A DNA stretch of 64,000 nt. It comes from an uncultured Alphaproteobacteria bacterium. Lineage in GTDB: Bacteria; Pseudomonadota; Alphaproteobacteria; SHVP01. The notes under the pieces are model-generated. The model was not told the origin of the DNA, did no database searches, and worked only from the letters and a program-made list of their open reading frames with translations. The DNA is taken from the NCBI GenBank assembly GCA_964350495.1, contig CAYGKG010000002.1, forward strand, positions 786 to 64,785, written 5' to 3'. This document shows positions 1 through 29,985 of the stretch, piece by piece (the stretch's first letter is position 1; each line of letters opens with the position of its first letter). The position numbers and the translations under genes are program-made.

Positions 1-628
1 TGTAGGCCACGACGGCTGGAATCGCTGCGACGAGACCTAGTGCCGTCGCAAATAGAGCTTCGGCTATACCGGGCGCAACGACTGCGAGGCTGGTGTTCTT
101 GCTCAGCGCAATCGACTGGAAGCTGTTCATGATTCCCCACACGGTGCCGAACAGCCCAATGAACGGTGCGGTCGAGCCGACCGTTGCCAAGAATCCCAAA
201 TAGCGTTCAAGACGATCCAGTTCGCGCGCGATGGTTAACCGCATCACTTGACCGATTCGTTCTTGCACCCCCGTCGATAGTTTGTCGTTGGCAACAAGGC
301 CGTGGGCGCCAGATCTACGCCACTCCCGCATCGCCGAGGCGAACAAAATCGCCATCGGATGGTCGGCTTTGGTCCCAATCCGATCGTAAAGATCTTCGAG
401 CGAGCCACCCGACCAGAACACCTCTTCGAAATCGCTCGCTTTTGCTTTGACCCGACGAATACGACGCACCTTGTCGAAGATGATCGCCCAACACCAAATG
501 GAGGCCCCGACAAGGAGAACAAGGACCAGTTTGACGACGATATCGGCGTGCAAAACGAGACTGAGGATGGAGAGGTCTCCGGAGACCGACCCTGCGATTG
601 CAGCCGCTTCAACTGCTTGTTGTTCCAT
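1..628 (-). CDS. tolQ: Tol-Pal system protein TolQ (partial; C-terminus beyond window start)
   Basis: Minus-strand translation from ATG at 628 gives MEQQAVEAAAIAG...GLFGTVWGIMNSF...VAPGIAEALFATALGLVAAIPAVVAY, the MotA/TolQ/ExbB signature. It sits 12 nt downstream of ybgC as in ybgC-tolQRAB operons. There is no stop in the window, so it is absent from the ORF track. Confidence 0.85.
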   Translation of the reverse strand, partial: MEQQAVEAAAIAGSVSGDLSILSLVLHADIVVKLVLVLLVGASIWCWAIIFDKVRRIRRVKAKASDFEEVFWSGGSLEDLYDRIGTKADHPMAILFASAMREWRRSGAHGLVANDKLSTGVQERIGQVMRLTIARELDRLERYLGFLATVGSTAPFIGLFGTVWGIMNSFQSIALSKNTSLAVVAPGIAEALFATALGLVAAIPAVVAY

Positions 629-640
629 GGTGCTCCCTGG

Positions 641-1108
641 TTAAGACGCGGATTGCGGTTGAGTGATTCGAGCGAAGGCAGCGTTGATCCAGGCCGGTAG
701 GCTCTGAACCCGGCCTTCGCCGTTCATGCAGGCGATCCGCAGGTCGATCGAGACCAAGAGATCGCCGGCGCGGTAGACGTTTTGCAGGACATCCAGCACC
801 GGCCCGCGGACGCGCTCGACACGCGTCCTAACGTCGAGACCGTCGTCAAGCCGCGCTGGCTTGCGGTATTTCACGCTACAGCTCCGAACGACGAAGGAGA
901 GGCCGTCCCGTGATGCCATATGAGAGTGGGTGACCCCCAGCAGACGCATCATGTCGGTCCGCGCACGCTCGACGAACTTCAAATAGTTCGCGTAATACAC
1001 GATGCCCGCGGCATCGGTGTCTTCGTAATAGACGCGCATCGGCAGGTGATGGATCCCCGCGCAATCGATATGTCCCGCACTCGGTTCAGCAGCCAACGAG
1101 TCAACCAT
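641..1108 (-). CDS. ybgC: YbgC-type acyl-CoA thioesterase (4HBT hotdog); true start may be the internal Met near 1039
   Basis: Motif [27 protein letters not shown] matches the YbgC N-terminal region. Position between ruvB and tolQ. Confidence 0.8.
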
Positions 1109-2156
1109 CGTCGTCCTCGGAAACCGGCATCTCGAGTTGGCGCGACGTCACCGAAGGCGCCGCCAAACCAAGATGGGCAAATGCCGCCGCCGTGAGTTGG
1201 CGCCCGCGCGGCGTGCGCTGCAGGAGCCCTTCCTGAATCAAGAACGGTTCGACGATTTCCTCGATGGCGTCGCGCGGTTCGGACAAAGCCGCTGCCATGG
1301 TCTCGATGCCGACGGGACCGCCCCCGAAGGACTCTGCGATGCACGAGAGATAACGGCGATCCATCGCGTCGAGGCCGCGTTCGTCGACCTCGAGCCGGCG
1401 CAACGCCTCCGACGCGATGACGCGATCGATTCGATCGTGCCCTGCGACGGCGGCGAAATCGCGCACCCGGCGCAGAAGCCTGCCGGCTATCCGCGGCGTG
1501 CCCCGCGACCGGCGGGCAATTTCCATGGAGCCCTCGTCGGTTAGGGGTACGCTGAGAATTCTTGCCCCTCGGCTAACGATCAAAACGAGATCGGCCGTGT
1601 CGTAGAAATTCAACCGGAGCGGAATCCCGAACCTTTCCCGCAATGGTGTCGTCAGAAGGCCAGACCGTGTCGTTGCCCCAACCAACGTAAAGGGTGGCAA
1701 GTCGATCCGAACCGAACGGGCGGCCGGTCCCTCGCCAATGATCAGGTCGAGATGGAAGTCCTCCATAGCGGGATAAAGGATCTCTTCGACGGCGGGGCTT
1801 AGCCGATGGATCTCGTCGATAAAGAGAACGTCGTGCGGTTGCAGGTTCGTCAGGAGCGCGGCGAGATCCCCGGACCGGGCGATCACCGGTCCGGCGGTCG
1901 CGCGAAAACTAACGCCCAACTCACGCGCGACAATTTGAGCGAGCGTGGTCTTTCCCAGGCCGGGCGGCCCGACGAGAAGTACGTGGTCCAGTGCCTCGCT
2001 GCGCGACCGCGCCGCTTCGACGAAAACCCTTAGATTGGCGCAGACTTGACCCTGGCCAACGAAATCGTCCAGCGAGACCGGCCGAATTCCCGGACCGAGG
2101 ACGTCGTCCTCTTGGGCGTCAGCGGCAACAAGCCGGTCCTGGGCGAGGTCGCTCAC
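1101..2156 (-). CDS. ruvB: Holliday junction branch migration helicase RuvB
   Basis: Walker [12 protein letters not shown] and Walker [10 protein letters not shown]; full-length RuvB-like sequence; overlaps ruvA stop. Confidence 0.95.
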
Positions 2157-2794
2157 GCGACCTTCCCGGTTTGGGCCAGTTCGCGCAACGCGCTGCGGAT
2201 CAGCACTTCTACCTCTAGGTCGCCCGGTTCGTCCCGTGCAACTGCGGCAACCGCAGTAAACGCTTCGACGCGCCGGTATCCCAGGTTGACCAGAGCGGAG
2301 ACAGCGTCCGCAGCAGCGTCACTGACCAACGCGCGCGCGGTTCTTATACCGTCCGCACCCGCGGGCGCGTCCGCAGAGAGCCCTGCGATCAGCACGGGCA
2401 CTTTGTCTTTGAGTTCTGCAACAATGCGTTGAGCCAACTTTGCGCCAACACCGGGCGCTTGGGTAACCGGCGCCTTATCTTGGGCTGCAATCGCTTCGGC
2501 GAGTTGCGCCGGACCGATCACCGACAGAATCGCGATTGCCACCCGCGCGCCCACACCTTGCACGGTTTGCAACAGGCGGAACCAATCGCGCTCGAGCGAA
2601 TCTGAGAACCCATAGAGGTGGATGTGATCTTCTCGGACGTGGGTGTCGACGAGCAGCGTCGCCGCGCCGCCGGGTGGGGGAAGATCCCGAAGCGTGCCTG
2701 CCGGACAGAAAAGGAGATAGCCGACGCCGTTGACGTCGAGCACAGCCCGGTCGGATCCCACCGAATCGACGACACCCTTCAGCTTGGCGATCAT
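2153..2794 (-). CDS. ruvA: Holliday junction DNA helicase RuvA
   Basis: N-terminus MIAKLKGVV...GVGYLLFCP is typical RuvA; ATGA overlap with ruvB. Confidence 0.9.
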
Positions 2795-3300
2795 CGCCTT
2801 CGCTCCGCGATTTCCTTGCGCAATGTGTTGCGTACCGGCAGGTGGTGGCCATGGCAGATTGCGACAGCCAAAGCATCTGCCGAATCGCTGCTGTCGATGC
2901 TGACCCCGGGCAAGAGGTGCGACACCATCATTTGAATTTGTTTCTTGTCGGCGTGCCCGGTTCCAACGACGGTTTTCTTGACCAGATTGGCGGCATACTC
3001 GCCCACGGGAATGCCCAGCGTGGCCGGTGCAAGCATCGCTGCACCGCGGGCCTGACCGAGTTTGAGGGTGCTGTCGGGGTTTTTGTTGACGAAGGTTTCC
3101 TCGATGGCGGCGGCGTCGGGAGCGATCTGCTCAACGACATCGACAACACCGCGGAAGATCTCGTAGAGACGCTCGGCAAGGGACGCGCTCGCAGTTGTTC
3201 GAATTGTACCGTTCGCAATATGGCGGAGCCGCCCCTCGTCGAGGGAGATCGCCCCCCACCCGGTCGCCCGCAGCCCAGGGTCAAGCCCCAGCAAAATCAT
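2791..3300 (-). CDS. ruvC: Crossover junction endodeoxyribonuclease RuvC
   Basis: MILLGLDPGLRATGWG catalytic N-terminus; ruvCAB order. Confidence 0.9.
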   Translation of the reverse strand: MILLGLDPGLRATGWGAISLDEGRLRHIANGTIRTTASASLAERLYEIFRGVVDVVEQIAPDAAAIEETFVNKNPDSTLKLGQARGAAMLAPATLGIPVGEYAANLVKKTVVGTGHADKKQIQMMVSHLLPGVSIDSSDSADALAVAICHGHHLPVRNTLRKEIAERRR

Positions 3301-5004: not shown

Positions 5005-5592
5005 TCAAAACCACTCCACTCCAGCTTCGGTCACGACCGCGTCCAGTCGCTGATCGGTCGGCAGCGCCGGCAGCGCCTCGATTCGCTGCGCCGCGTACGC
5101 AACCCCTACTGCCAGTATCGTCGATACGCCGCGCAGTTCTGCCAACGTGCGGTCGTAAAAGCCCTTGCCCGAACCGAGCCGGTGGCCAACGCCATCGAAT
5201 AGCACAAGAGGTACGATGACCAAGGTCGGGCGCAACGGCGCAGCGCTCCGGAGCGGCACCGGAATCCCGTAGGGTCCCGGCTCCAGGTCATCGGCGTCAC
5301 CCCACGCCCGGAAATGCAGGGGGCGACCTTCTGCCACGACACACGGCAACGCTACCGCGAGACGCTCGGCCCTGAGCGCGCGCAGGAGCGGCCGATCATC
5401 GATTTCGCCGCCGACCGGCCAATAGCCCGACACGATCTTATGCTCGCGGTAGGGGATGCTCGACATAAAGCGCTCGGCGAGACGCGAGCCTGAATCGTTT
5501 TCCCCGGCCGAGACCGTGGCACGACGGCGACGGCCTTCCCGACGCAACGTTTCGCGGCTATCCATGGCTGGGATGTTGTGGGGCGAGACCAC
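5005..5592 (-). CDS. 5-formyltetrahydrofolate cyclo-ligase (MTHFS/YgfA); start possibly the internal Met at 5565
   Basis: C-terminal VPLVLFDGVGHRLGSGKGFYDRTL motif of 5-FTHF cyclo-ligase. Confidence 0.8.
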   Translation of the reverse strand: MVSPHNIPAMDSRETLRREGRRRRATVSAGENDSGSRLAERFMSSIPYREHKIVSGYWPVGGEIDDRPLLRALRAERLAVALPCVVAEGRPLHFRAWGDADDLEPGPYGIPVPLRSAAPLRPTLVIVPLVLFDGVGHRLGSGKGFYDRTLAELRGVSTILAVGVAYAAQRIEALPALPTDQRLDAVVTEAGVEWF

Positions 5593-5752
5593 TACGGCCG
5601 TCCGGATCTTTCGTTCCTCTGTGGCCTGCCGAGGCAGGTGGGTGCCGCGATACCGGGACCACAGTCCCGACAGAGGCAGCTCCCGGAGAAAACGGTATTG
5701 GCCCCAGGGATACGTGGCCGATCGAACCGAGCAGAACTCGCCCGCCCCTAAT
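5572..5752 (-). ncRNA. ssrS: Candidate 6S RNA (SsrS) between zapA and ygfA
   Basis: A roughly 160-180 nt non-coding gap lies exactly where 6S RNA is found (zapA-ssrS-ygfA). Minus-strand 5' GGGCGAG (5737-5743) can pair with CTCGCCC (5581-5587) as a terminal closing stem. No covariance model was run. Confidence 0.35.
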
Positions 5753-11117: not shown

Positions 11118-11769
11118 CGCAGCGCCTCCGACAGCGGTCGATGCCCGCTGCCGTCTCTATCTGATTAGCCCACCGGATGTCGGTGCGGACTTTCCGGATT
11201 TGGTCAACGGGGCGCTTTCCGGGGGGGACGTCGCGTGCCTGCAACTTCGCCTGAAAGGGCACAGCGACGAGGCGATTATCCGAACAGCTGAACGGTTGTT
11301 GCCAATCACCCGTGCCGCCGATGTCGCCCTGTTGATCAATGATCGGCCCGACCTTGCGGCTCAAGCCGGCGCCGACGGTGTGCATATCGGGCAGTCCGAC
11401 ACATCGTATGAAGAGGCGCGATCCTTGATCGGGTCCGACGGAATCATCGGCATCACCTGTCACAACTCGCGCCACCTAGCGATGGAAGCTGCCGAGCGTG
11501 GGGCCGACTATGTCGCATTCGGCGCATTTTTCGACTCCCCAACGAAGCCGCCAAAGTACCGTGCCGAAATCGACTTGCTGGAGTGGTGGGGAAGCATCTT
11601 CGAGATTCCCTGTGTCGCGATCGGCGGAATCACGACACAAAATTGCCAGCCTTTGGTGCAGGCCGGCGCGGATTTTATCGCGGCGGTCTCCGCTGTTTGG
11701 GACCATCCCGACGGACCGGCAGCCGCCGTGAAGGCCTTCAACGACGCGATCGCAGCCGCGACCGCCTAG
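11107..11769 (+). CDS. thiE: Thiamine-phosphate synthase
   Basis: LQLRLKG...ADGVHIGQSD...IGGI motifs of ThiE. Confidence 0.85.
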   Translation: MPPSAAPPTAVDARCRLYLISPPDVGADFPDLVNGALSGGDVACLQLRLKGHSDEAIIRTAERLLPITRAADVALLINDRPDLAAQAGADGVHIGQSDTSYEEARSLIGSDGIIGITCHNSRHLAMEAAERGADYVAFGAFFDSPTKPPKYRAEIDLLEWWGSIFEIPCVAIGGITTQNCQPLVQAGADFIAAVSAVWDHPDGPAAAVKAFNDAIAAATA

Positions 11770-12836
11770 ACCTCCGCCACGGGTAGCCACAGAACATCAT
11801 CGATTTTTTCGGCGCCGGTCGCGACCATGACTAGCCGGTCAAACCCGATCGCCATGCCTGCCGACGGTGGTACACCGTGACCCAACGCGGCCAGAAAATC
11901 CTCGTCAATCGGGTAGACCGGCGCTTGGAGCCTTCTTTTCGCCGTCAGATCGCGCTCGAACCGCTGTCGTTGGTCTACCGCGTCGGTAAGTTCGCCAAAT
12001 CCGTTTCCCAACTCTAGGCCGGCGACGTAGAGCTCGACGCGCTGAGCGACGCGCGGATCACCTGGATCGATTTGGGCAAGCGCAGCCAACGGTGCCGGCC
12101 ACGATTCGAGCAACGTCGGCCGCCCGACCCCGAGATTGGGCTCGATCCGATCGACAAAGACACGAAAGAACATGTCCTCCCAGGTGTCGGCTTCCTCGAC
12201 ACGAATCCCCGCTTTCGTGCAGGCGTCGGCAAGCGCGGCGGCGTCAGGTGCGCCATCAATACCGAGCGTCGCGAGAAGGTCTATCGCCGCGTCGCGGGCA
12301 TACGCCGATGCGACGCTGATGCGTTCGAACGGGAGGGACGGATCGGCTGCTTTCCCCGACCAACGTAACAGCCCCTGGGAAAGCGGGCGCGGGACGGCTT
12401 CCAGCGCCGCGCGCACCAGGCCCTCGCAGTGAGTTCCCAGGTCGCGCCACGTGGTATCCGCAGCGTACCACTCGATCATGGTAAATTCGGGGTGATGAAT
12501 CGGGGACCGCGCTTCGTTGCGCCAGACATGGCAAATTTGAAACAGCTTCGGGACGCCGGCGGCGAGCAGCTTCTTCATCGCAAATTCGGGCGAGGTGTGC
12601 AGGTAGAGGCGCTGGCTGCCGAGCCCGAAAGGCTCATCGAGGTCTGTCGGAAACGCTCGGAGGTTGGGTTCCAGACCCGGGGAGACCTGAAGCGCAGGCG
12701 TCTCGACCTCGACGAATCCGCGCCCCGTAAACCAAGCACGCACGGCCGCAAGCATCGCTGCGCGTGCTGTCAGATAGGGCGCGCGGCGGGCAAACCGATC
12801 GGGTCGCCAGGCAGGCGATCTGCCATTGCTTTTCAC
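11766..12836 (-). CDS. epmA: EF-P--(R)-beta-lysine ligase EpmA (PoxA/GenX, truncated class II LysRS paralog)
   Basis: Class II aaRS core motifs without an anticodon-binding domain; about 355 aa; divergent from epmB-efp. Confidence 0.85.
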   Translation of the reverse strand: MKSNGRSPAWRPDRFARRAPYLTARAAMLAAVRAWFTGRGFVEVETPALQVSPGLEPNLRAFPTDLDEPFGLGSQRLYLHTSPEFAMKKLLAAGVPKLFQICHVWRNEARSPIHHPEFTMIEWYAADTTWRDLGTHCEGLVRAALEAVPRPLSQGLLRWSGKAADPSLPFERISVASAYARDAAIDLLATLGIDGAPDAAALADACTKAGIRVEEADTWEDMFFRVFVDRIEPNLGVGRPTLLESWPAPLAALAQIDPGDPRVAQRVELYVAGLELGNGFGELTDAVDQRQRFERDLTAKRRLQAPVYPIDEDFLAALGHGVPPSAGMAIGFDRLVMVATGAEKIDDVLWLPVAEV

Positions 12837-12900: not shown

Positions 12901-13971
12901 ATGAGCCGTTCGCCGACGAAAAGAAAAGTCCACCGCACCGCCCATGATCTCGTCGCAGCCGGCTTGATCCCCGAGGGCGCCCATACGCTAACGGATGCGG
13001 TCGCGCAGCGATACGGCATCGCGATCACCCCGGCGGTTCACGACCTGATCGACCCGACCGACGTTGGTGATCCGATTGCGCGCCAGTTCGTACCCTCCGG
13101 GCTCGAACTCGAGGACCGACCGGGCGAGAACGGAGACCCGATCGGCGACGAAGCATTTAGTCCGGTCAAGGGAATCGTCCATCGCTACCCCGATCGCGTC
13201 CTGCTCAAGCTCCTCCAAACATGCCCAGTCTACTGCCGCTATTGTTTTCGGCGGGAGCACGTCGGCCAAGGGGAAAAGCCATTGGCCGCCGAGGAAATAC
13301 GTGCGGCATTGGACTACGTTCGGACGCGGCCGGAGATATGGGAAGTCATTTTGACCGGGGGCGATCCGCTCTTGCTGTCTCCCCGACGCCTTCGGGAGAC
13401 CGTCAGCGCATTGGACGTTATCGACCACTTGGGTGTTATTCGCGTACATACGCGGGTCCCGATTGTCGACCCGGAACGCATTGATGCGGCATGCGTTGCG
13501 GCGTTGTCCGCCGACAAGGCGGTGTACGTCATCATCCATTGCAACCACGCACGTGAACTTTCAACGGCTGCAGTCGCCGCGGTCCGGCGGATTGTCGATG
13601 CCGGCATCCCGGTTCTCGCCCAGTCTGTGCTCCTGAGGGGCGTCAACGACGACGCAGAGACATTGGAAGCGTTGTTCCGCGCGCTGGTGCGAGCCCGGGT
13701 CAAACCCTACTACCTTCACCATCCCGATCGGGCGCGAGGCACCGGCCATTTCAGGCCGTCGCTCGCATCGGGACGCCAGATCGTGGATAGCCTTCGGGGG
13801 AAACTGTCGGGGCTGTGCCATCCAACCTATGTACTCGACATTCCAGGGGGCCACGGCAAGGTTCCCGTCGCGATCGATCGAACGACGGAGACGGGGGATG
13901 GCAGCTTCTTGATTCGCGACCCCCAAGACCGGATTCACCGTTATCAGGACGAAATCGACAGCGCGCCGTAG
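12901..13971 (+). CDS. epmB: EF-P beta-lysylation protein EpmB (lysine 2,3-aminomutase family radical SAM)
   Basis: CPVYCRYCFRR is the CxxxCxxC radical SAM motif in a KamA-like sequence; immediately upstream of efp. Confidence 0.85.
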   Translation: MSRSPTKRKVHRTAHDLVAAGLIPEGAHTLTDAVAQRYGIAITPAVHDLIDPTDVGDPIARQFVPSGLELEDRPGENGDPIGDEAFSPVKGIVHRYPDRVLLKLLQTCPVYCRYCFRREHVGQGEKPLAAEEIRAALDYVRTRPEIWEVILTGGDPLLLSPRRLRETVSALDVIDHLGVIRVHTRVPIVDPERIDAACVAALSADKAVYVIIHCNHARELSTAAVAAVRRIVDAGIPVLAQSVLLRGVNDDAETLEALFRALVRARVKPYYLHHPDRARGTGHFRPSLASGRQIVDSLRGKLSGLCHPTYVLDIPGGHGKVPVAIDRTTETGDGSFLIRDPQDRIHRYQDEIDSAP

Positions 13972-14032: not shown

Positions 14033-14596
14033 ATGAAGATCAACGCCAATCAGATTCGACCCGGAATGGTGATCGAGTACGAAGGCCGCCAAATGGCGGT
14101 CATCAAGATTCAATTGATCCAACCGGGCAAGGGTGGTGCCTTTATCGCGGTCGAAATGCGAGACTTGACCAACGGCGTCAAGACCAACCAACGTTGGCGC
14201 ACCGCCGATACAGTCGAGAAGCTCAACACCGAAGAGCACGACTATCAGTATTTGTTCGCGGACGGCGACGCCTTCACTTTTATGGACCCCGAAACATACG
14301 AGCAGATATCGATACCGGGTTCGATCCTTGGTGACGACGCCGCTTACCTTCAGGACGGCATGACGGTTATCGTCAACAGCGTCGAGGGCAAACCGATCGG
14401 TGTCCAACTGCCTGCAACCGTCATCCTGGAAGTCGTCGAGGCCGAGCCCGTGGTCAAGGGACAGACCGCTTCGTCGTCCTACAAACCTGCGCAGATGAGC
14501 AACGGCGTCCGGGTCATGGTGCCGCCGTTTGTCGAAACCGGGACCAGGATCGTCGTCAATACCGCCGACGGTACCTACCTCAAGCGAACGGATTAG
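14033..14596 (+). CDS. efp: Elongation factor P
   Basis: MKINANQIRPGMVIEYEG...QPGKGGAF carries the modifiable Lys in the PGKGGAF loop. Confidence 0.95.
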   Translation: MKINANQIRPGMVIEYEGRQMAVIKIQLIQPGKGGAFIAVEMRDLTNGVKTNQRWRTADTVEKLNTEEHDYQYLFADGDAFTFMDPETYEQISIPGSILGDDAAYLQDGMTVIVNSVEGKPIGVQLPATVILEVVEAEPVVKGQTASSSYKPAQMSNGVRVMVPPFVETGTRIVVNTADGTYLKRTD

Positions 14597-15498: not shown

Positions 15499-16419
15499 GT
15501 GAGCGGGCAGACAAAGGGAGACTTCTCGATGGGCAAGCAAGGGCAGCGGGTTTTTGTTCGATGCTCGCGGCATTGGTATGTCGCCGTCACCGCTACAATG
15601 CTCAGCCTATTGTTCAGCAGCGCCGCAATCGCCCAGGAGACCGTCATCATCGGTGGCAGCGGGCAATCGGCGGTTGATGTGAACCTCGGCGCGTTACGTG
15701 ACCTAGACGGTCGGCAGCGCGTGCGAACCTTGCGTTTTCCGGGTGAAGCAAGCGATGACGCCATCGTCCTGAAACCGCCCGCGGGGAGCCGGACGGCGCT
15801 ACCCGCCGGACAGCGCCCCATTCTGACCGCTCCGGCGCCGAGCCTCCGTCCGAGTGTGCCGGCGGCACCGACAATCGCAAGACCGATCGCTCCGACGCCG
15901 ATGGCGGCACCGCCCGTACGCGAAGCCGCGGAAGCAGCCCCAATCGTTGTTGCGCCACCGGCTCCCCCCGTCGTTGCCCGGCAGGCCCCGGCACCGGATG
16001 CCGCCGCGCCGGAGCGGATTGCCCCAAGAGATACCGTCAGGCCTGCCCCTACACCCGAAACAGCACCCCAACGGACCGCGGCGCTACCGCCGGCGGCACC
16101 AACCGGTGACGGCCCCGCCCTGCGCTTGTTGTTCGATGGCTCGGCAACCCAACTCGGTGCCGGCGCGCAGGCTCAGCTCCAACAATTCGCGGCGACCCTG
16201 GGCACCAACGAGCGCCGCATTCAACTCAAAGCGTTCGCCACCGGCGCCAGCGACCGGCCGAGTGCCGCCCGTCGCGAATCTTTGTCGCGGGCCCTGGCCG
16301 TGCGGTCCTACCTGATCGAGAACGGCGTGCGCAGTACGCGGATCGATGTTCGCGCCCTAGGAGAACCCACAGACGGCGGGCCGAACGACCGCGTGGATGT
16401 CATATTGCTGACGCAATGA
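15499..16419 (+). CDS. OmpA-like peptidoglycan-binding protein with a long Pro/Ala-rich spacer (probable signal peptide; start may be ATG at 15529)
   Basis: N-terminal hydrophobic leader ...MLSLLFSSAAIAQE; about 150 aa of PAPxxAP repeats; C-terminal OmpA-like motifs ESLSRALAVRSYL...NDRVDVILL. Confidence 0.7.
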   Translation: MSGQTKGDFSMGKQGQRVFVRCSRHWYVAVTATMLSLLFSSAAIAQETVIIGGSGQSAVDVNLGALRDLDGRQRVRTLRFPGEASDDAIVLKPPAGSRTALPAGQRPILTAPAPSLRPSVPAAPTIARPIAPTPMAAPPVREAAEAAPIVVAPPAPPVVARQAPAPDAAAPERIAPRDTVRPAPTPETAPQRTAALPPAAPTGDGPALRLLFDGSATQLGAGAQAQLQQFAATLGTNERRIQLKAFATGASDRPSAARRESLSRALAVRSYLIENGVRSTRIDVRALGEPTDGGPNDRVDVILLTQ

Positions 16420-16469
16420 TCTGAAGAACTTGGCGGGACTACGCACCTTAAGGGGAGCGATCAGAACAC

Positions 16470-17603
16470 ATGACTGGAACCCGCACCTTTCTGACGAGAA
16501 TGACCGTCTTTCTTGTCATCGTCGCGGCCGTGGTCCTGGCAATTATCGGACCTTTGGAACGCGCCTTCATGGCGAACCCGGCGATCAACGGCCTTATCCT
16601 CGGGGTTCTCCTGCTCGGCATCGTCTACGCCTTTAGACAGGTGCTCCTGCTCCATCCGGAAGTACGCTGGATCGATACCTTCCGGCGCAGCGAGCCTGGA
16701 CTGTCCGTCCAGGATCCGCCCACGCTGCTAGGCCCGATGGCGACAATGCTGGGCGACCGTACGAGCCGGCGCATGCAGTTGTCGACCCTGACGATGCGGT
16801 CGCTATTGGACGGCATTTCGTCGCGCCTGGACGAATCCCGCGATATTTCGCGCTACATGATCGGCCTCCTTGTCTTTCTCGGACTGCTGGGAACTTTTTG
16901 GGGCCTGCTCCAAACCATCGGTGCAGTGGGGAGCACTATTGCATCCCTGAGCGTCGATGGCGGCGACTTCAGCGCCCAGTTCGACAGCCTCCGTCAGGGC
17001 TTGGAAGCGCCGTTGAGTGGCATGGGCACGGCCTTTTCCTCCTCGCTCTTCGGGCTGGGCGGTTCGCTCGTCCTTGGGTTTCTCGACCTCCAGGCCGGGC
17101 AAGCGCAAAACCGCTTCTACAACGACCTGGAGGAATGGCTTTCGAGTGTGACGCGCCTGTCAAGCGGTGCCGGGATCGCCGAAGGAGATCAGTCGGTCCC
17201 AGCCTACGTTCAAGCGCTGCTTGAGCAGACCGCGGAGAGCCTCGACAACCTGCAACGCACGATGACGAATGCAGAGGGGGGACGGCATAGCTCCAACCAG
17301 ACGTTCGTGAACCTCGCCGAACGCTTGGCCACGCTCACCGATCAGATGCGCTCAGAGCAAGACCTGATGGTCAAACTGATCGAAAGCCAGATGGAGATGA
17401 AGCCGCTGCTCCAGAAGTTGGCTGAGGATCGGGGCGGGGTCGATAAGACCGCACAAACCCATTTGCGCAATATGGACCTCTATCTCAGCCAACTCCTCGA
17501 TGCGACGACACGCGGACAAGATCAGCTTGTCACGGAGATTCGCAACGAGTTGAAACTGGTCGCCCGGACGATCGCGGCTTCGCTCGATAAGCGGCGCGAC
17601 TAG
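16470..17603 (+). CDS. MotA/TolQ/ExbB-family proton-channel protein with a roughly 160-aa cytoplasmic helical C-terminal extension
   Basis: Four predicted TM helices; GLLGTFWGLLQTIGAVG and MGTAFSSSLFGLGGSLVLGF match the MotA_ExbB signature; coiled-coil-like C-terminal tail. Confidence 0.7.
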   Translation: MTGTRTFLTRMTVFLVIVAAVVLAIIGPLERAFMANPAINGLILGVLLLGIVYAFRQVLLLHPEVRWIDTFRRSEPGLSVQDPPTLLGPMATMLGDRTSRRMQLSTLTMRSLLDGISSRLDESRDISRYMIGLLVFLGLLGTFWGLLQTIGAVGSTIASLSVDGGDFSAQFDSLRQGLEAPLSGMGTAFSSSLFGLGGSLVLGFLDLQAGQAQNRFYNDLEEWLSSVTRLSSGAGIAEGDQSVPAYVQALLEQTAESLDNLQRTMTNAEGGRHSSNQTFVNLAERLATLTDQMRSEQDLMVKLIESQMEMKPLLQKLAEDRGGVDKTAQTHLRNMDLYLSQLLDATTRGQDQLVTEIRNELKLVARTIAASLDKRRD

Positions 17604-17614
17604 ACCGGATCGCC

Positions 17615-19054
17615 ATGGCGTTTCGAACCCGTACGCGCGGTCAAGACTATTGGCCCGGCTTTGTCGATGCGCTAGCCGCGCTGCTAGTCGTTATCATCTT
17701 CCTGCTGGTCGTCTTTGTATTGGCGCAGGTGTTTTTGTCCCAGGCCCTTTCGGGACGGGACGAAGCGTTGCAGCGCCTGACAACGCAAATCAACGAACTG
17801 ACCGAACTTTTGTCCCTTGAACGCCAGGGCAATGCGGACCTCCGACTGAACGTGGCCCAGCTTTCGGCATCGCTTCAGAGCGCCAACGAAGAGCGCGACA
17901 ACCTCGTGGTCGAACTGTCGGAGCTTCGCTCCGAGGCGGCGCGGCTGAATGAAACCGTCGCTCTGTTGACACGTCGGGCCGAAACCGCCGAACGGGGGCT
18001 CTCGGAGGCCCAGAGCGACTTGGCGGTAGCTAACGACACGGTCGAGCGGGACCGCGAAACCATCCGGACGCAACTCGCCGATGTCGAACGGCTGCAACGC
18101 GATATCGATGCCCTACGTACACTTCGCGCCGAACTGGAGAAGCGCGTCGGAGACCTTGCCACCGCCTTGGAGACATCCCAGCGGGACGCCGAGGTTCTGC
18201 GGCAACAGGCCACTAACCTCGAGACGGCGCTATCGGAGACCCGCGAAATCGTTGGAACGTTGAGGGACAGTCAACGCGAATTGCGCGCCCAACTCGCCAA
18301 CGAAGAAGAGCGGACGCGGCTTACACAGGCGGACCTGAAAGACCGAGAGGTTCGCCTCGCCGAGGTCCAGGCGCTCTATCTCGCGCGCGAATCGGCTCTA
18401 GAGGAAGAACAGGAACTGTCATCCGACGCCAAGGCCCGCGTGGCGCTGCTGAACCAGCAGATCGCCTTGCTACGAGAGCAACTACGCTCAATCCAAGCCG
18501 CGCTCGGCCAGGCTGAATCGAAGGACGAAGAACAGCAAGTCGTAATCTCGGATCTTGGACGCCGCCTCAATCAAGCGTTGGCCCAAAAAGTCGAAGAGCT
18601 CTCGCGCTACCGGTCGGAATTTTTTGGCCGCCTCAGGGAAGTGCTGGGCGACCGACGCGACATTCAAATCGTCGGCGACCGCTTCGTGTTTCAATCGGAG
18701 GTCTTGTTCGGTTCGGGATCGGCAGAATTGGGTGACGAAGGGCGCGCCCGTTTGCGTGATCTAGCGAATACGTTGATCGAAATCATTCCCCGCATCCCCG
18801 CCGATATCAGTTGGATTCTGCGGGTCGACGGACACACCGATTCGGTGCCCATCAACTCATCTCAATTTCCGTCAAACTGGGAACTGTCCGGCGCGCGTGC
18901 GACCAACGTCGTGAAATTCCTGATCGAAGCCGGCATCCCCGCACAACGTCTGGCGGCAGCCGGGTTCGGCCAGTATCACCCACTCGATGAGGGAGACGAC
19001 GAGATCGCGTTCCGGCGCAATCGGCGCATCGAGATGAAACTGACCGAGCGCTAG
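17615..19054 (+). CDS. MotB-like protein: N-terminal TM with conserved Asp, about 300-residue coiled coil, C-terminal OmpA-like peptidoglycan-binding domain
   Basis: WPGFVDALAALLVVIIFLL resembles the MotB/TolR plug and TM region with its Asp; residues about 45-340 are heptad-rich E/R/L/Q/A; C-terminus VDGHTDSVPI...NWELSGARATNVVKFL...FRRNRRIEM is the OmpA motif. Confidence 0.75.
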   Translation: MAFRTRTRGQDYWPGFVDALAALLVVIIFLLVVFVLAQVFLSQALSGRDEALQRLTTQINELTELLSLERQGNADLRLNVAQLSASLQSANEERDNLVVELSELRSEAARLNETVALLTRRAETAERGLSEAQSDLAVANDTVERDRETIRTQLADVERLQRDIDALRTLRAELEKRVGDLATALETSQRDAEVLRQQATNLETALSETREIVGTLRDSQRELRAQLANEEERTRLTQADLKDREVRLAEVQALYLARESALEEEQELSSDAKARVALLNQQIALLREQLRSIQAALGQAESKDEEQQVVISDLGRRLNQALAQKVEELSRYRSEFFGRLREVLGDRRDIQIVGDRFVFQSEVLFGSGSAELGDEGRARLRDLANTLIEIIPRIPADISWILRVDGHTDSVPINSSQFPSNWELSGARATNVVKFLIEAGIPAQRLAAAGFGQYHPLDEGDDEIAFRRNRRIEMKLTER

Positions 19055-20871
19055 ACCGCCGAGACCTCGCGAAGCCCCCCCACATTGAACTGAAGCTTCG
19101 CGAGCCGCGCGTACAGTCCGCCCTGAGCCATAAGCGAATCGTGGGTACCCTCGGCGACGATTTTCCCGCCGTCGACCACCACGATTCGATCCGCCTTCTG
19201 AACTGTCGCGAGGCGATGGGCAATGACGATGGTCGTGCGCCCTTCCATGAGGATTTCCAGGGCCGATTGGACCGCGCGTTCGCTCTCGGCATCGAGCGCA
19301 CTTGTCGCTTCATCGAGCAACAACAGCGCAGGATTGCGTAACAGCGCCCGCGCAATCGCGACTCTCTGCTTTTGTCCGCCCGATAGGGTGACACCGCGTT
19401 CGCCAAGTTGCGTCGCAAACCCTTCAGGAAGACGGTCGAGGAACTCGGTCGCCGACGCGGCATCGGCGGCGGCCCGAACTTCGTCATCACTCGCGTCGGG
19501 GCGACCGTAACGAATATTGTCCCAGGCATCCGCCCCGAAAATCACCGGATCTTGGGATACCAACCCAATGTTGGCGCGAAGATCGCGCGGATCGAGACGG
19601 ACATATTCAAGGCCGTCGAACGTCATGTGCCCGTCTGACGGATCGTAGAACCGCAGGAGCAATTGAAACACAGTCGTCTTCCCGGCACCGGACGGCCCAA
19701 CCAGGGCAACGGTTTCGCCCCCCGCCACATCGAGCGAGAAATCCGACAGCGCGGGGACCTCCGGCCGCATGGGATACCGGAACGAGACGCCGCGAAGTTC
19801 CACCGCGCCCCGTGCGGGACTAGGCAAGACAAGTGGGGACACCGGCGCCTTGATGTCGGGTTCGGCATTGAGGAGTTCGGACAACCGCTCCGCAGCACCA
19901 GCGGCCTTTTGCACATCGCCAAACACCTCAGACAGCGCCGCCACGGATCCGGCAGTAACGATCGCGTAAAAAACGAAGGCGCCAAGGTCGCCGCTGGTCA
20001 TGCTGCCATTCATCACTTGAATGGCGCCGATCCAGAGGACGCCAACAATAGAACCAAAGACCAGCAGGATGACCGACAGGGTCAGGAATGCGCGCGCCCT
20101 GATTTGATCCATGGCCGCGCGAAGCGCCGTTTCGACCTTGCCTCCAAACCTTGCGCGATCGACATCCTCATGCACGAACGCCTGAACGGTACGCACCTCA
20201 TTGATGCTTTCATCGGCAGCCGCGCTAACTGCACCAATGCGATCTTGAGTTTGGCGCGACAGGCGGCGCACTCGCCGGCCAAAGACCATCAGCGGCAGAA
20301 CGATGATTGGGACAGCAAGAATGATCAGTCCCGACAGTCGTGGGCTCGTTATGATCAGCATGATCAAGCCGCCGATGAGCAGCAGGATGTTCCGCAACGC
20401 CATCGATGCGCTGGCACCAACAATCGACTGAATGAGTGTTGTATCAGTCGTGATCCGCGACAGGATCTCACCGGTTTTGTTGCGCTCGAAGAACGCCGGG
20501 CTCAGGCCGATGACCCGGTCGTACACGGCGCGGCGCAGGTCGGCGACCACACGCTCGCCAAGCCACATGACAAGGTAGTAACGGCCGAACGTCCCCACCG
20601 CGATCACTGCAACGACGCCGAATAGAAGGAGGAAGGTCCGATTCACATCCGCCATTGAGTCGAAATTGTCGATCAAGAGCTGCAGGACGCGCCCGATACC
20701 GAGCGTTCCAACTGCGGCGGCGACTAAGGCGACTCCCGCGACCGCGGCCACGCGCCAGTAGGGGTAGGCGAATTCGAGCACCGAGCGGAGCTGCGCGAGA
20801 TCTCGGCTCTTAGGACGCTCCTCGGGGTTGTTGCCGATAGAGCCGCCATAGCTACTTGCCTGTCGCGCCAC
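19051..20871 (-). CDS. ABC transporter, fused permease/ATP-binding (MsbA-like exporter)
   Basis: N-terminal six-TM domain; GPSGAGKTT Walker A, LSGGQKQR signature, [11 protein letters not shown] Walker B. Confidence 0.9.
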
Positions 20872-23831: not shown

Positions 23832-24608
23832 ATGCCTCATCCGCTTATGCCTAAGGCCACGGCGGTCTGGCTGGTCGACAACACGTCGCTAAGCTTTGAC
23901 CAAATTGCTGATTTCTGCGGTTTACATGCCCTGGAGGTCCAGGGGATTGCCGACGGTGAAGTCGCGATAGGCATCGTTGGCCGCGATCCGATAGCGAACG
24001 GCGAACTAACCCGCGACGAGTTGGATCGCTGTCAGGCCGACCGTACCGCCCGTCTGGTCATGCTCGAACCTGAGATTGAAATGCAACAGCGTCGGCCAGG
24101 GCCGAAGTACACGCCGCTGTCGAAACGGCAGAACCGCCCGGACGCGATCGCTTGGTTAATAAAATTCCACCCTGAACTGACCGATGCCCAGGTCTGTCAG
24201 TTGGTGGGGACAACCAAACCTACCGTCGTTTCGGTGCGCGACCGCAGCCACTGGAACACCCCGAACCTCAAGCCCCAAGATCCAGTCAGCCTGGGTATGT
24301 GTTCGCAGACGGAACTGGATTCCGCAGTCCAGGCGGCAGCGCAACGCCTCCAGCGTAAGGAGGACCGCGAGCGCCGCGCGGCGGCGAAGGTTGCCAAGGA
24401 AAAGCAGGCGGCGCTTGATGCGGCCCAAGAAGCTCGTGCGGCGGTTGCAGCAGCGGGCGCAAACAAGGAACCTGATTCGACCGAAAGCGTTGACGAGGCC
24501 GCGATCGAAGACGTTCCGGACACAGCCCTTGGCGCAGCTTTAGCGCGGGCCGGAGTCGCACCCACGGAATCCGGTTCGGGTAGCGAGAACTCCGGCAACG
24601 ACTCCTAG
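23832..24608 (+). CDS. DUF1013 domain protein
   Basis: MPHPLMPKATAVWLVDNTSLSFDQIADFCGLHALEVQGIADGEVA is the hallmark DUF1013 N-terminus; low-complexity acidic C-terminus. Confidence 0.8.
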   Translation: MPHPLMPKATAVWLVDNTSLSFDQIADFCGLHALEVQGIADGEVAIGIVGRDPIANGELTRDELDRCQADRTARLVMLEPEIEMQQRRPGPKYTPLSKRQNRPDAIAWLIKFHPELTDAQVCQLVGTTKPTVVSVRDRSHWNTPNLKPQDPVSLGMCSQTELDSAVQAAAQRLQRKEDRERRAAAKVAKEKQAALDAAQEARAAVAAAGANKEPDSTESVDEAAIEDVPDTALGAALARAGVAPTESGSGSENSGNDS

Positions 24609-29011: not shown

Positions 29012-29224
29012 ATGCTACGTTCGCTCATGGGATTGGAGCTCCTTCGCCAGCAACTCGTCGCTTTGAAAACGGAACATCGCGATCTCGATGCAGCCGTCGA
29101 CGTGCTCCTCGAGCATACGCCCTTCGACAGTTTGAAATTGCAGCGGCTCAAGAAACGAAAACTGGCATTGAAGGATCAGATCGCACGGCTGGAAGACCAG
29201 CTGTACCCGGACATCATTGCCTAG
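29012..29224 (+). CDS. DUF465 (YdcH-like) small protein
   Basis: ...LKTEHRDLDAAVDVLLEHTPFDSLKLQRLKKRKLALKDQIARLEDQLYPDIIA. Confidence 0.6.
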   Translation: MLRSLMGLELLRQQLVALKTEHRDLDAAVDVLLEHTPFDSLKLQRLKKRKLALKDQIARLEDQLYPDIIA

Positions 29225-29985
29225 CCGGGGCCGCCATTCGACTTCATGCGCTTCTTGTGGGCGTACATGTCCCGGTCGGCCGCTGCCAGCGCGTGACCGA
29301 CGTCTTCGGCACCGGTAAACGTGTAGACGCCTACCGCCACATGGATCGGCACCGCACGGCCCTGATGATCCATCGGGACCTTCATGATTTGTCGGGCCAG
29401 ATGCTCGGCTTTTTCCCGCGCGGTCGATTGATCGGTCCGGTCCAGAATGACCCCGAACTCATCGCCGCCCAAGCGTCCCACGACGTCGGACTCACGCACG
29501 CTGGAAAGCAAAAGCTCGGCGACGTGTTTGAGCGCTTCGTCGCCGGCGGAATGACCGTAGGTATCGTTGATCTCTTTGAAGTCGTTAACGTCGATATATA
29601 CGACCGAAGACGGCGTGCCATAACGTTCGGCCAGCGCCATATTTCTAGTCAGCTCGCGGACGAACGCACGCCGATTGGCAATGGGGATGAGCGGATCGCG
29701 ATCGGCCAGCCTTTCCAGATTGGCCAGCCGCTCCCGCGCGACCTGAAGCTCGCGGCGCATCTGGTCGACTTCGGCCATCAGGTTCATCAGCGCGTCGCGG
29801 ACCTTTGGCGTGATCTCAGCCTGCGGAATCCCCATGACCGAGACGTTGTCATCGACCTGGCGTGGAGGCGCGGCGGCGCCGTAGGCGTCCGTTGCCTGAA
29901 CGGACGAGGCCCGTGTCGCGCCGGACGCGCGTGCCACGCGACGAACCGACGTCGTTCCTACAGGGCCGGTTGAGGATACTTTCAT
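29221..29985 (-). CDS. Diguanylate cyclase (GGDEF domain only; likely start the internal Met near 29835)
   Basis: RLGGDEFGVIL GGDEF motif; no recognisable sensor domain. Confidence 0.85.
   Translation of the reverse strand: MKVSSTGPVGTTSVRRVARASGATRASSVQATDAYGAAAPPRQVDDNVSVMGIPQAEITPKVRDALMNLMAEVDQMRRELQVARERLANLERLADRDPLIPIANRRAFVRELTRNMALAERYGTPSSVVYIDVNDFKEINDTYGHSAGDEALKHVAELLLSSVRESDVVGRLGGDEFGVILDRTDQSTAREKAEHLARQIMKVPMDHQGRAVPIHVAVGVYTFTGAEDVGHALAAADRDMYAHKKRMKSNGGPG

Follow-up and report, generated by a model that had tools for sequence, protein, structure and literature searches.

A conserved alphaproteobacterial MotA/MotB-superfamily membrane module with a long predicted periplasmic coiled coil on its B subunit

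The locus and the upstream protein P1

The window analysed here is a 64,000-nucleotide stretch of DNA from an uncultured alphaproteobacterium, in which three co-directional open reading frames, termed P1, A and B, were found at the positions given in the original prediction (Table 1); 11 nt separate the A stop from the B start.

Table 1. Features of the P1-A-B locus (positions are those of the window)
Feature	Position (nt)	Strand	Evidence
P1: secreted OmpA-like protein, 296 aa	15529..16419	+	Pfam OmpA, hydropathy, composition, RBS, gene callers
P1 Pro/Ala-rich linker	15754-16128	+	composition
P1 degenerate OmpA-like domain	16129-16368	+	Pfam OmpA
A: divergent MotA/TolQ/ExbB/ZorA-superfamily membrane protein, 377 aa	16470..17603	+	
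A N-terminal transmembrane hairpin, aa 9-62	16494..16655	+	hydropathy, alignment invariants, AF2
A channel-forming helices: TM3, periplasmic loop and TM4	16854..17087	+	invariant columns, BLASTP to TolQ, Pfam
A cytoplasmic tail, aa 207-377	17088..17600	+	AF2, periodicity, conservation, tail duplications, PADLOC alignments
B: MotB/ZorB-like protein, 479 aa, NCBIfam PRK09039 member	17615..19054	+	NF006543, adjacency to A
B transmembrane helix, aa 13-41, WPGFVDALAALLVVIIFLL...	17651..17737	+	invariant columns
B periplasmic coiled-coil rod (predicted), aa 42-345	17738..18649	+	periodicity, AF2, conservation, heptad-quantised length
B C-terminal OmpA/MotB-type peptidoglycan-binding domain, aa 350-479	18662..19051	+	Pfam, PDB matches, invariant columns

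The true start of P1 is most likely the ATG at 15529, since GGGAGA lies just before it and independent gene callers return the same 296-aa form; the alternative start, a GTG at 15499, would yield 306 aa. A single N-terminal hydrophobic segment, ending in AIA directly before QE, is a predicted signal peptide, and a short conserved motif (TVIIGG..VDVNL) lies near the N-terminus. The OmpA domain (Pfam E 3e-10, aa 211-290 of the 306-aa ORF) is preceded by a 125-aa stretch that is 50% Pro+Ala (aa 86-210, same numbering). Hydropathy and Pfam thus support the secreted OmpA-like protein that had been predicted, with a Pro/Ala spacer that is real but shorter than the ~150 aa claimed. In most loci an orthologous ORF with a shared C-terminal LSRALAVRSYLI..GVRSTRIDVRALG motif lies immediately upstream of A, and ~1,100 P1 homologs are each named only "OmpA family protein". 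P1 often accompanies the pair but is dispensable, as A-B is kept without it in Sinorhizobium, Defluviicoccus and several other loci. The length of the P1 linker shows no correlation with that of the B coil (rho 0.2-0.36, p 0.05-0.29).

The A subunit

The four transmembrane helices of A, including both predicted signature helices, are supported by hydropathy (segments ~9-29, 41-62 and 129-153, with the fourth helix covering the GMGTAFSSSLFGL motif) and by AF2, which places N-terminal helices at 4-24, 26-35 and 37-72; F33 and N40, in the short loop joining the first two transmembrane helices, are invariant. TM3 (aa 129-153) contains LGLLGTFWGL with the invariant T142, and TM4 (aa 184-206) is marked by P181 and GMGTAFSSSLFGL. 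Conservation within the family is highest in the MotA/TolQ/ExbB motifs: an alignment of 48 diverse members, with identity down to 34%, has invariant channel motifs (LGLLGT, P181 and GMGTAFSSS), and its invariant columns are L137, G138, G141, T142, G145, L146, P181, M185, F189, G195 and L196. A is better conserved than B or P1, at ~65% identity between orders.

The Pfam MotA_ExbB match to A (aa 101-155) scores 19.5 bits against a cut-off of 22.9, unlike the host's own canonical TolQ, which scores 115.8 bits and to which only the TM3 motif of A aligns by BLASTP. Significant sequence matches of A are only to ZorA models and reach into the tail (PADLOC ZorA1, E 4e-16; ZorA1 and ZorA3 alignments extend to aa 322 and 374), and when PDB sequences are compared with the A family profile, the sole motor protein matched is the type I ZorA 8vvn_C, over 131-374. 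A is very divergent, since it scores under the Pfam cut-off and far under those of NCBIfam (ZorA_2, 15.7 bits against 100; ZorA_4, 16.7 against 500).

The cytoplasmic tail is helical over 170 aa (AF2 pLDDT ~80), close to the 160 aa first proposed, and consists of a TM4 extension and two long helices (245-320 and 326-376) with a heptad periodicity of z = 6.8 versus shuffles. HLRNxD is conserved, as is a C-terminal ELRxEIRLLARTIA that runs to the last residues, and tail-module duplications in variants of 574-614 aa indicate that the tail is expandable. The description of the system as an inverted Zorya is accordingly not supported: A itself has a Zorya-like heptad-periodic cytoplasmic tail that is matched by ZorA models.

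The B subunit and its periplasmic rod

An Arg-rich cytoplasmic N-terminus precedes the transmembrane helix of B, where W13, P14, G15, F16, V17 and D18 are invariant; WPGFVDAL is kept in all complete N-termini that were examined, and in a set of ~195 sequences none with a complete N-terminus lacks the Asp. Asp18 (nt 17666-17668) is the putative proton-binding residue. The C-terminal domain matches Pfam OmpA (E 1e-13) and the MotB, PomB and MotS structures of the PDB (E 1e-15 to 1e-11), with conserved DGHTD, NWELSxxRA and RRNRRIE motifs, in agreement with the predicted architecture of a transmembrane Asp and an OmpA/MotB domain. Among the Pfam domains originally named, OmpA was thus found in P1 and B, MotA_ExbB matched A under its cut-off, and a Pfam search gave no MotB_plug match in B.

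Between these ends, residues 42-95 next to the membrane and 261-345 next to the OmpA domain, the latter with RYRSEFFGRL, are conserved, and the middle (~100-260) is rich in indels. Residues 45-345 contain no Pro and 17% Leu and have a 3.5-residue hydrophobic periodicity (z = 8.4 versus shuffles), and AF2 predicts helices at 16-227 and 230-344 with a break at 228-229. The periodicity, the lack of Pro and the AF2 helices uphold a periplasmic coiled coil of ~300 residues and rule out low-complexity disorder.

A new result is that the length of this coil is heptad-quantised. In 180 sequences the transmembrane motif and the OmpA domain lie 194-481 residues apart. Divided by 7, this distance leaves a remainder of 5 in 152 of the sequences and for 31 of the 48 distinct lengths (binomial 2e-15); the largest of the remaining classes differ from this by +3 or +4 residues, the classic stammer and stutter. 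Heptad counts are odd as often as they are even, and the coil itself varies from ~154 to 441 residues by single heptads. Since the lengths fall in one class mod 7, the coil would form one continuous rigid rod of ~23-65 nm, although it may bend or fold at the AF2 break. Neither a fixed-distance ruler nor a symmetric hairpin fits such variation by single heptads, so that the proposal of a coil that must fold back or reach the outer membrane finds no support in these lengths. Mechanically, a wall anchor borne on a rod of 23-65 nm is odd for a torque-resisting stator, a point against reading the pair as a motor.

Genomic context and conservation

Wherever a fetched locus is long enough to show the pair, A and B lie side by side, and their surroundings in these loci are always housekeeping, with efp-suhB upstream and an MsbA-related exporter and rpmE downstream; this context is kept from Rhodospirillales to Sinorhizobium. 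Here and in S. meliloti the lipid-type exporter gene is convergent with B and overlaps its stop codon. The intergenic gaps from suhB to B contain no terminator-like sites, and two + strand terminator-like matches in this interval both lie inside the A coding region. The module is a single-copy housekeeping locus, and homologues and synteny across orders bear out a conserved alphaproteobacterial module rather than a one-off. Neither a characterised member of the family nor an experiment on any member was found in the literature.

A scan of ~50 larger ORFs across the window detected no flagellar or TonB genes, in line with the first remark that none lie nearby; the accompanying statement that Tol-Pal genes are absent holds for the immediate neighbourhood only, since positions 1-630 (- strand) contain a truncated canonical tolQ, which follows ruvC-ruvA-ruvB and a ybgC-like gene and is ~15 kb from the module. 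Neighbouring genes gave no specific defence-system matches, only weak or generic domain matches (radical-SAM to pVip, E 8e-4; ABC-ATPase to mad3/mad8). Five matches in the plasmid collection are all to non-mobilizable replicons of 3.5-4.6 Mb, apparently chromosomes filed as plasmids, and no true plasmid copies were found there.

A candidate wall-anchored motor and its alternatives

Starting from the fold class, invariant residues, coiled-coil continuity, conservation and genomic context established above, A and B probably constitute a housekeeping, vertically inherited, wall-anchored, inner-membrane ion-driven A5B2 motor of the MotAB/ExbBD/TolQR/ZorAB class. Two B chains would be centred in an A pentamer, with protons passing via Asp18 of B and the polar A residues T142 and S190/S192. 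The B dimer would extend as a continuous, in-register, two-stranded coiled coil, fixed to peptidoglycan by the OmpA-type domain at its far end, and because B would be so fixed, the A pentamer would turn relative to B and the wall. The moving output would be the cytoplasmic coiled-coil tail of A, as in Zorya or MotA, acting on a partner encoded outside the cluster; no cytoplasmic partner is encoded nearby. The rod, ~45 nm here, would be far longer than the membrane-to-wall gap and so must lie oblique or roughly parallel to the membrane, anchoring the motor to the wall at a lateral distance. P1 may act as an accessory periplasmic wall-binding partner in many lineages. As to physiological role, envelope mechanics or sensing is our guess.

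An unlikely alternative is an energiser directed to the periplasm by the logic of Tol, Ton or GldLM, in which a fixed A pentamer would let the B dimer with its long rod deliver proton-motive-force-derived work to the wall or outer membrane, possibly with the Pro-rich P1 as a TolA/TonB/Pal-like partner; envelope tethering or remodelling in bacteria without Braun's lipoprotein is an example. The A fold is at least as close to ExbB/TolQ as to MotA, P1 with its signal peptide, spacer and OmpA-like domain is directly upstream in most loci, the conserved exporter converges on B, and a long periplasmic extension on a B-type subunit has a precedent in GldM/PorM. However, the canonical wall-binding domain that ends B suggests an anchored element rather than a free transducer, P1 is dispensable and its linker does not follow the coil in length, the host already has a canonical Tol system, and the conserved A tail is left without a role.

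Quite improbable is a passive element, i.e. a static inner-membrane-to-wall tether or coiled-coil "skeleton" formed by B, with A as its membrane chaperone or anchor and neither ion flow nor movement. The long, variable coil weakly matches filament-type coiled-coil families, some B homologs carry precomputed Pfam crescentin and intermediate-filament matches, and A is too divergent for the MotA_ExbB threshold; however, without ion translocation it is difficult to account for the family-wide invariance of the transmembrane Asp of B and of the polar and Gly/Pro channel motifs of A, and A is the best conserved of the three proteins.

That the pair is a Zorya-type anti-phage system of a type without recognisable effectors is highly unlikely. 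The best A matches and several B matches are to PADLOC/NCBIfam ZorA/ZorB models and the A tail resembles that of ZorA, but the NCBIfam scores of A are far too low, no ZorC/D/E/F/G-like gene is present near A-B, and one copy in fixed housekeeping synteny across orders is the opposite of a defence island; together with the lack of specific defence matches and true plasmid copies, this also speaks against the suggestion of a defence-type stator. An extra flagellar stator (MotAB paralogue), as many database records name the pair ("flagellar motor protein MotA" and "chemotaxis protein MotB" in source annotations) and as matches of the C-terminal 170 residues of B to MotD, MotS and PomB models might suggest, is scarcely credible, since A matches no NCBIfam MotA/PomA model, its TM2-TM3 loop is only ~66 aa, B has no plug match, the 64 kb contain no detected flagellar gene and the synteny of the family is non-flagellar everywhere; the original assignment to a non-flagellar MotA/MotB-superfamily pair is upheld.

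Comparison with known systems

With MotA, and also PomA, MotC and MotP, A shares four transmembrane helices with both termini inside, and with MotB, PomB, MotD and MotS, B shares an N-terminal transmembrane helix with Asp in a "W..F.D" context and, after a conserved linker, a wall-binding domain that matches the MotD/MotS/PomB models and structures. Unlike these stators, A lacks a rotor-facing cytoplasmic domain of MotA size, and a 300-residue coil replaces the short linker of MotB. Unlike TolQ/ExbB, A has an extra N-terminal transmembrane helix and a long C-terminal tail; B, with its OmpA domain, resembles MotB rather than TolR/ExbD, and the module has no TolA/TonB-type partner with an N-terminal transmembrane helix.

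The B family is already named as NCBIfam PRK09039 (NF006542-NF006546, "peptidoglycan-binding protein"), a name without assigned function. The window B passes NF006543 (457.5 bits, cut-off 305) and the S. meliloti ortholog aligns with NF006544 from end to end (692 bits). With 342-350 positions, four of the five models represent short-coil forms, so that the window B aligns in two pieces with ~135 extra coil residues.

Among the closest known systems is the Zorya ZorA/ZorB core (type I ZorAB, PDB 8QYD, 8VVN). In ZorA, too, a heptad-periodic cytoplasmic tail of evolvable length follows a MotA/ExbB-type channel, and ZorB likewise has one transmembrane helix with an essential Asp and a C-terminal peptidoglycan-binding domain. 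Unlike Zorya, the module has no ZorC/D/E effectors and no defence-island context; A has four transmembrane helices where ZorA has three, and a tail of ~170 aa where that of ZorA projects ~70 nm, and the periplasmic coiled coil of B, at ~154-441 residues, cannot be accommodated in the ZorB profiles (215-293 positions). A ZorAB-like core with an extra periplasmic rod is the better description of the system.

Gene organization and distribution

The genes for A, a membrane protein of the MotA/TolQ/ExbB/ZorA type, and for B, a MotB/ZorB-like protein with a coiled coil, form the core pair of a large, vertically inherited family that is chromosomally fixed in the sampled orders, from the Rhodospirillales to Sinorhizobium. 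A word-indexed search returned more than 8000 homologs of A; the protein is strongly conserved, many homologs being ~65% identical in other orders, e.g. in Minwuia. Among 1.84 billion cluster representatives (50% identity) there were 3036 matches to A at E<=0.001 and 610 at E<1e-30, the top ones mostly spanning near-full A length. With each species represented by a single genome, a scan gave at least 600 matches; the best 80 loci, which were inspected, belong to Rhodospirillales, Azospirillum, Nitrospirillum, Niveispirillum, Thalassospira, Kiloniellales, Defluviicoccus, Acetobacteraceae and some MAGs labelled Hyphomicrobiales. Wherever a fetched locus extends far enough, B follows A; most loci have efp-suhB upstream, and many have a convergent ABC exporter and rpmE downstream. 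The same housekeeping synteny is found in Rhodospirillales, Kiloniellales, Minwuia, Acetobacteraceae and Rhizobiaceae, so the expectation that the A-B pair would prove a conserved alphaproteobacterial module is borne out. A protein search of a plasmid collection yielded five records from Sinorhizobium and Shinella. Each is a non-mobilizable replicon of 3.5-4.6 Mb, apparently a chromosome filed as a plasmid.

In the window the pair is preceded by P1, a secreted OmpA-like protein, with gaps of 50 nt (P1-A) and 11 nt (A-B). The P1 ATG at 15529 lies ~95 nt beyond suhB and is preceded by a GGGAGA ribosome-binding site; this start (296 aa) was also picked by independent gene callers on three metagenomic contigs encoding an identical A. 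The intergenic gaps from suhB to B hold no terminator-like site, two + strand matches falling inside the A coding region, and a promoter scan found no promoter-like sites and terminator-like sites only at chance level, within coding sequence. Upstream of the module are tkt, gap, fba, thiE, epmA-like and epmB-like genes, efp and suhB; downstream are the ABC exporter, rpmE, hsp20, a thioesterase, a quinone oxidoreductase and trcR. The MsbA-related exporter converges on B, the two genes sharing 4 nt at the B stop codon; in Sinorhizobium meliloti the corresponding overlap is 14 nt, and the exporter follows B in many further loci. This convergence may reflect functional linkage or mere ancient synteny.

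The EF-P modification set beside efp is complete (EpmA-like, EpmB/KamA-like, efp) and accompanies the module in several further loci. The 6S RNA of the window lies directly upstream of, and on the same strand as, the 5-formyltetrahydrofolate cyclo-ligase gene, which is the usual ssrS-ygfA arrangement.

Coordinates of features in the window and, where L083 is given, in the S. meliloti locus
Feature	Coordinates	Strand	Remarks
tolQ, truncated, canonical	1-630	-	MotA_ExbB 115.8 bits; carries APFIGLFGTVWGIM and GIAEALFATALGLVAAIPAVVAY
ruvC-ruvA-ruvB and ybgC-like 4HBT thioesterase	641-3300	-	
5-formyltetrahydrofolate cyclo-ligase	5005-5592	-	
6S RNA	5585-5740	-	RF00013, 49.1 bits
EpmA-like truncated lysyl-tRNA-synthetase paralogue	11766-12836	-	
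EpmB/KamA-like radical-SAM enzyme	12901-13971	+	
efp	14033-14596	+	
P1	15499/15529-16419	+	ORF
A	16470-17603	+	ORF
B	17615-19054	+	ORF
MsbA-related ABC exporter	19051-20871	-	TIGR02204, 848 vs 780 bits
TrcR-family transcriptional cell-cycle regulator	23832-24608	+	PF06242, 207 bits; few kb downstream of module
Small GGDEF diguanylate cyclase	29221-29985	-	few kb downstream of module
ORF, 407 aa	48328-49551	+	no Pfam match at E<1e-5; overlaps long ORF 47975-49588
'suhB'/mmgR sRNA	62176-62253	-	Rfam RF00519, 53 bits; ~45 kb from suhB
ORF, 232 aa	62382-63080	+	no Pfam match at E<1e-5
Sel1-repeat protein, S. meliloti	L083 4337-5482		between thiE and suhB
suhB-to-A gap, S. meliloti	L083 6525-6838		
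Convergent ABC exporter, S. meliloti	L083 8963-10777		
TPR protein, S. meliloti	L083 14460-14873		~5.5 kb downstream of B

The A subunit

A has hydrophobic segments at ~9-29, 41-62 and 129-153 and a fourth helix bearing GMGTAFSSSLFGL. Its AlphaFold2 model, built on 48 diverse homologs, is all-helical (mean pLDDT 85.5), with two long helices, 245-320 and 326-376, beyond the final membrane helix. The membrane core fits the fold of the superfamily of 5:2 motors, i.e. ion-driven A5B2 complexes, which combines two long channel helices with a peripheral helix and a helical domain in the cytoplasm. Columns invariant in the 48 members (identity down to 34%) are F33, N40, W67, L137, G138, G141, T142, G145, L146, P181, M185, F189, G195 and L196, the majority of them on the two channel helices; S190/S192 are conserved at 90% or more. 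In the published Zorya structure ZorA has three TM helices, and its Thr147 and Ser184 face Asp26 of ZorB; judged by motif position, T142 and S190/S192 of A are the putative equivalents of T147/S184.

Significant sequence matches of A are confined to ZorA models. PF01618 (MotA_ExbB) aligns only aa 101-155, at 19.5 bits and under its gathering cut-off of 22.9; among NCBIfam models only two ZorA models match (E ~0.003-0.006); and the PADLOC ZorA1 (E 4e-16) and ZorA3 (E 2e-10) alignments extend from the channel helices into the tail. A search of the PDB with the family profile matched a sole motor protein, the Shewanella type I ZorA 8vvn_C (E 0.006, aligned over 131-374); the same search with the single A sequence gave coiled-coil noise only.

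The A tail shows heptad periodicity (z = 6.8) and is conserved as far as the C-terminal ELRxEIRLLARTIA, with HLRNxD as a further conserved motif; in most members it is of near-constant length. Variants of 574-614 aa (P0242, P0272, P0300, P0316) have lengthened it by tandem duplications of the HLRNxD-containing module and retain the extreme C-terminus. Another homolog, P0241, has instead a 180-aa Pro-rich C-terminal extension.

The B subunit and its coiled-coil rod

B has a single N-terminal TM helix. No aligned sequence departs from the segment WPG(F/Y/W)VDAL..LL.VIIFLL with its Asp, and among ~195 sequences none with a complete N-terminus lacks the Asp; in the few cases where it is missing the ORF is truncated or mis-called. 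A membrane helix with a universal Asp fits the MotB/ZorB type of B subunit in 5:2 motors. At the other end the last 120-170 residues align with solved structures of MotB, PomB and MotS (E 1e-15 to 1e-11), and the wall-domain motifs GHTD, NxxLSxxRA and NRR are conserved. The original prediction named three Pfam families: OmpA is confirmed on P1 (E 3e-10) and on B (E 1e-13, 52 bits vs a cut-off of 27.2), MotA_ExbB on A stays below its cut-off, and MotB_plug (PF13677) has no match to B at E<0.1. B also scores above the curated thresholds of three PRK09039 equivalogs (NCBIfam "peptidoglycan-binding protein"): NF006543 (457.5 vs 305 bits), NF006544 (408.8 vs 362) and NF006545 (388.3 vs 372).

The insert of ~300 residues between these two ends is, as had been proposed, a genuine coiled coil rather than disorder. 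Residues 45-345 contain no proline and show a 3.5-residue hydrophobic periodicity (z = 8.4 vs shuffles), and AlphaFold2 predicts a helix at 16-227, a two-residue break, a helix at 230-344 and then an alpha/beta domain. Across the fetched loci B varies from 334 to 620 aa. In 180 unique sequences the rod was measured as the residue distance between the TM motif (WPGFVD) and the strand that opens the OmpA domain (GDRFxF). Values span 194-481 residues and are congruent to 5 modulo 7 in 152 of the 180 sequences and in 31 of the 48 distinct lengths, the chance of at least 31/48 in a single class being 2e-15. The dominant series is nearly gap-free (292, 299, 306, 313 ... 362), with odd and even heptad numbers balanced (16 vs 15), and three quarters of the off-class sequences (21/28) are offset by +3 or +4 residues, as in the classical discontinuities called stammer and stutter. 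Conservation is universal near the membrane (aa 42-95) and near the OmpA domain (aa 261-345, including RYRSEFFGRL, conserved 97%), and indel hot spots lie at ~111-130 and 191-210. From the heptad-quantised lengths the coil is inferred to be a single continuous rod, free to drift in length yet constant in phase.

With a rise of 0.1485 nm per residue the rod would measure ~23-65 nm in the family and ~45 nm in the B of the window. The Zorya paper places the wall ~9 nm from the inner membrane in E. coli, so the rod is too long to stand upright on the membrane, and its length does not act as a ruler. A symmetric hairpin is disfavoured by the single-heptad steps and by the occurrence of both parities, because fold-back would favour 14-residue steps; the AF2 break at 228-229 leaves room, and given that predicted break the rod may be bent. 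Free length combined with fixed heptad phase makes the family a natural experiment on motor anchoring and offers a directly testable prediction.

P1

P1 has one N-terminal hydrophobic segment, ending AIA-QE, a 125-residue stretch that is half Pro and Ala, and its C-terminal OmpA domain. Most loci have a P1-like ORF immediately before A; it encodes a signal peptide, a short conserved N-terminal motif (..VDLSVL-like) and a Pro/Ala-rich linker, and the orthologs share the C-terminal motif LSRALAVRSYLI..GVRSTRIDVRALG. Its identity of 37-55% is below the conservation of A and B, its ~1,100 matches are all named "OmpA family protein", and Sinorhizobium, Defluviicoccus and several other loci lack it. 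As a partner co-spanning with the B rod P1 was rejected: its length, Pro-rich span and Pro count show no significant correlation with coil length (rho 0.20-0.36, 30 loci). P1 is treated here as an accessory periplasmic partner.

The Sinorhizobium meliloti locus and annotation of the family

In S. meliloti, A (368 aa) and B (342 aa) come after thiE, a sel1-repeat gene and suhB, in that order, and before the convergent ABC exporter and rpmE; this B matches NF006544 end to end (692 bits). From coordinates in PMC2573895 and PMC3687685 the orthologs putatively map to SMc03989/SMc03990. One preprint mentions SMc03990, using solely its RpoD promoter. The sRNA sm84 was detected in the SMc03988-SMc03989 intergenic region (PMC2573895); under the putative coordinate mapping its site would be the suhB-to-A gap, the slot held by P1 in the window. 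The TPR protein downstream of B may be RgsF (SMc03995), a factor in polar growth that is conserved outside Rhizobiales as well (PMC7327166). Identity of the A-B pair itself with Rgs proteins was rejected, the Rgs paper and its supplements containing no MotA or OmpA terms.

Records of A carry the labels "flagellar motor protein MotA", "MotA/TolQ/ExbB proton channel family protein" or "hypothetical protein", and databases usually mislabel A-B as flagellar MotA/MotB. As the B family is named by NCBIfam (PRK09039) and A stands in source records, the genes are already known as sequences. A full-text search of a literature library found no functional or structural study of any family member, and the main text of a recent survey of MotAB relatives mentions neither coiled coils nor Alphaproteobacteria.

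Proposed mechanism

The module represents a putative 5:2-motor family of housekeeping distribution and distinctive architecture: a four-TM tailed A, a heptad-quantised rod on B and often a P1. Invariant residues in both subunits (the B Asp and the channel motifs of A), the fold class of A, the wall-binding domain, the strict A-B adjacency and the continuous coil together suggest that A and B would form a proton-driven A5B2 motor anchored to the wall through B, in which A turns relative to B; the stoichiometry and the ion-driven rotation are drawn by analogy from fold class and gene adjacency. Since B would be the anchored element and the A tail is conserved, the output is most likely cytoplasmic, following Zorya/MotA logic, with the tail acting on a partner encoded elsewhere. 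The rod would set the wall anchor tens of nanometres sideways from the motor, and a tether gated by tension or displacement is an attractive, speculative purpose for it.

The most far-reaching form of this proposal is tentative and is judged rather unlikely to be correct: that much of the Alphaproteobacteria possesses a housekeeping Zorya-like rotary motor, ancestral or sister to the defence systems, tethered to the wall by a 23-65 nm coiled-coil shaft that is torsionally continuous, register-locked and laid out in the periplasmic plane, such that tension or displacement between inner membrane and wall gates proton flow and rotation of the A tail reports or corrects envelope mechanics. If true, it would constitute a new physiological class of 5:2 motor.

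Among the rivals to a cytoplasm-directed motor, an energiser directed to the periplasm and using P1 would suit the P1-like ORF found upstream of A in most loci; the loci without P1 and the conserved A tail speak against it. A passive tether would employ the rod and the wall domain, and leaves aside the invariant channel helices of A and the universal Asp of B on which the motor reading draws.

Comparison with Tol/Ton, Zorya and flagellar systems

The host owns a separate Tol system, since a canonical tolQ, preceded by ruvC-ruvA-ruvB and a ybgC-like thioesterase gene, occupies the left edge of the window ~15 kb from A-B; evidently the Tol-Pal cluster begins there and continues beyond the edge. 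The original prediction of no flagellar, TonB or Tol-Pal genes nearby stands for the first two, none of which occur among ~50 larger ORFs scanned across the 64-kb window, and for Tol-Pal holds in the immediate surroundings only. In BLASTP of A against the host TolQ only the TM3 motif aligns, and no TolA/TonB-like gene is present beside A-B. Whereas Tol-Pal and Ton systems are expected to have a B subunit of the ExbD/TolR type, the B of the module matches MotB-type and OmpA models only; A-B is a separate, far more divergent system paralogous to the host Tol.

A defence system of the Zorya kind has in its favour the ZorA-directed matches of A. However, these and the ZorB match are partial in PADLOC (ZorA1 56.9 bits, ZorB3 82 bits) and A is far under the NCBIfam cut-offs (ZorA_4 16.7 vs 500 bits, ZorA_2 15.7 vs 100), so that the profile comparison that had been proposed places the pair outside Zorya. 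No ZorC/ZorD, ZorE or ZorF/ZorG gene is adjacent, the neighbours being efp, suhB, the MsbA-related exporter, rpmE and hsp20, and PADLOC assigns these neighbours to no specific defence system, matching only the radical-SAM protein to pVip (E 8e-4) and the ABC-ATPase to mad3/mad8. A Zorya system would be expected to have a patchy, island-like or mobile distribution, whereas the module sits in uniform housekeeping synteny across orders; a mobile or defence origin was rejected on the 3.5-4.6-Mb records of the plasmid collection and the weak or generic PADLOC matches of the neighbours. The idea of an "inverted Zorya", with the long tail on A in Zorya and on B here, fails because A has a heptad-periodic tail as well.

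A flagellar stator, the usual database label, is the weakest alternative: as originally proposed the pair is non-flagellar, with no NCBIfam MotA/PomA match to A at E<0.1, no PF13677 match and no flagellar genes in the 64 kb or in the conserved synteny of related loci, and whereas flagellar MotA has a large rotor-facing cytoplasmic domain and flagellar MotB a plug and a short linker, A has a TM2-TM3 loop of ~66 aa and B a coil of ~300 residues between TM helix and OmpA domain.

In the Zorya paper and the survey of MotAB relatives, ion-driven 5:2 motors serve flagella, AglRS gliding, Ton uptake, Tol-Pal division and Zorya defence; type 9 secretion is also cited as related. A-B would add a further class to these, and suggests that the tailed-motor design of Zorya has a housekeeping relative.
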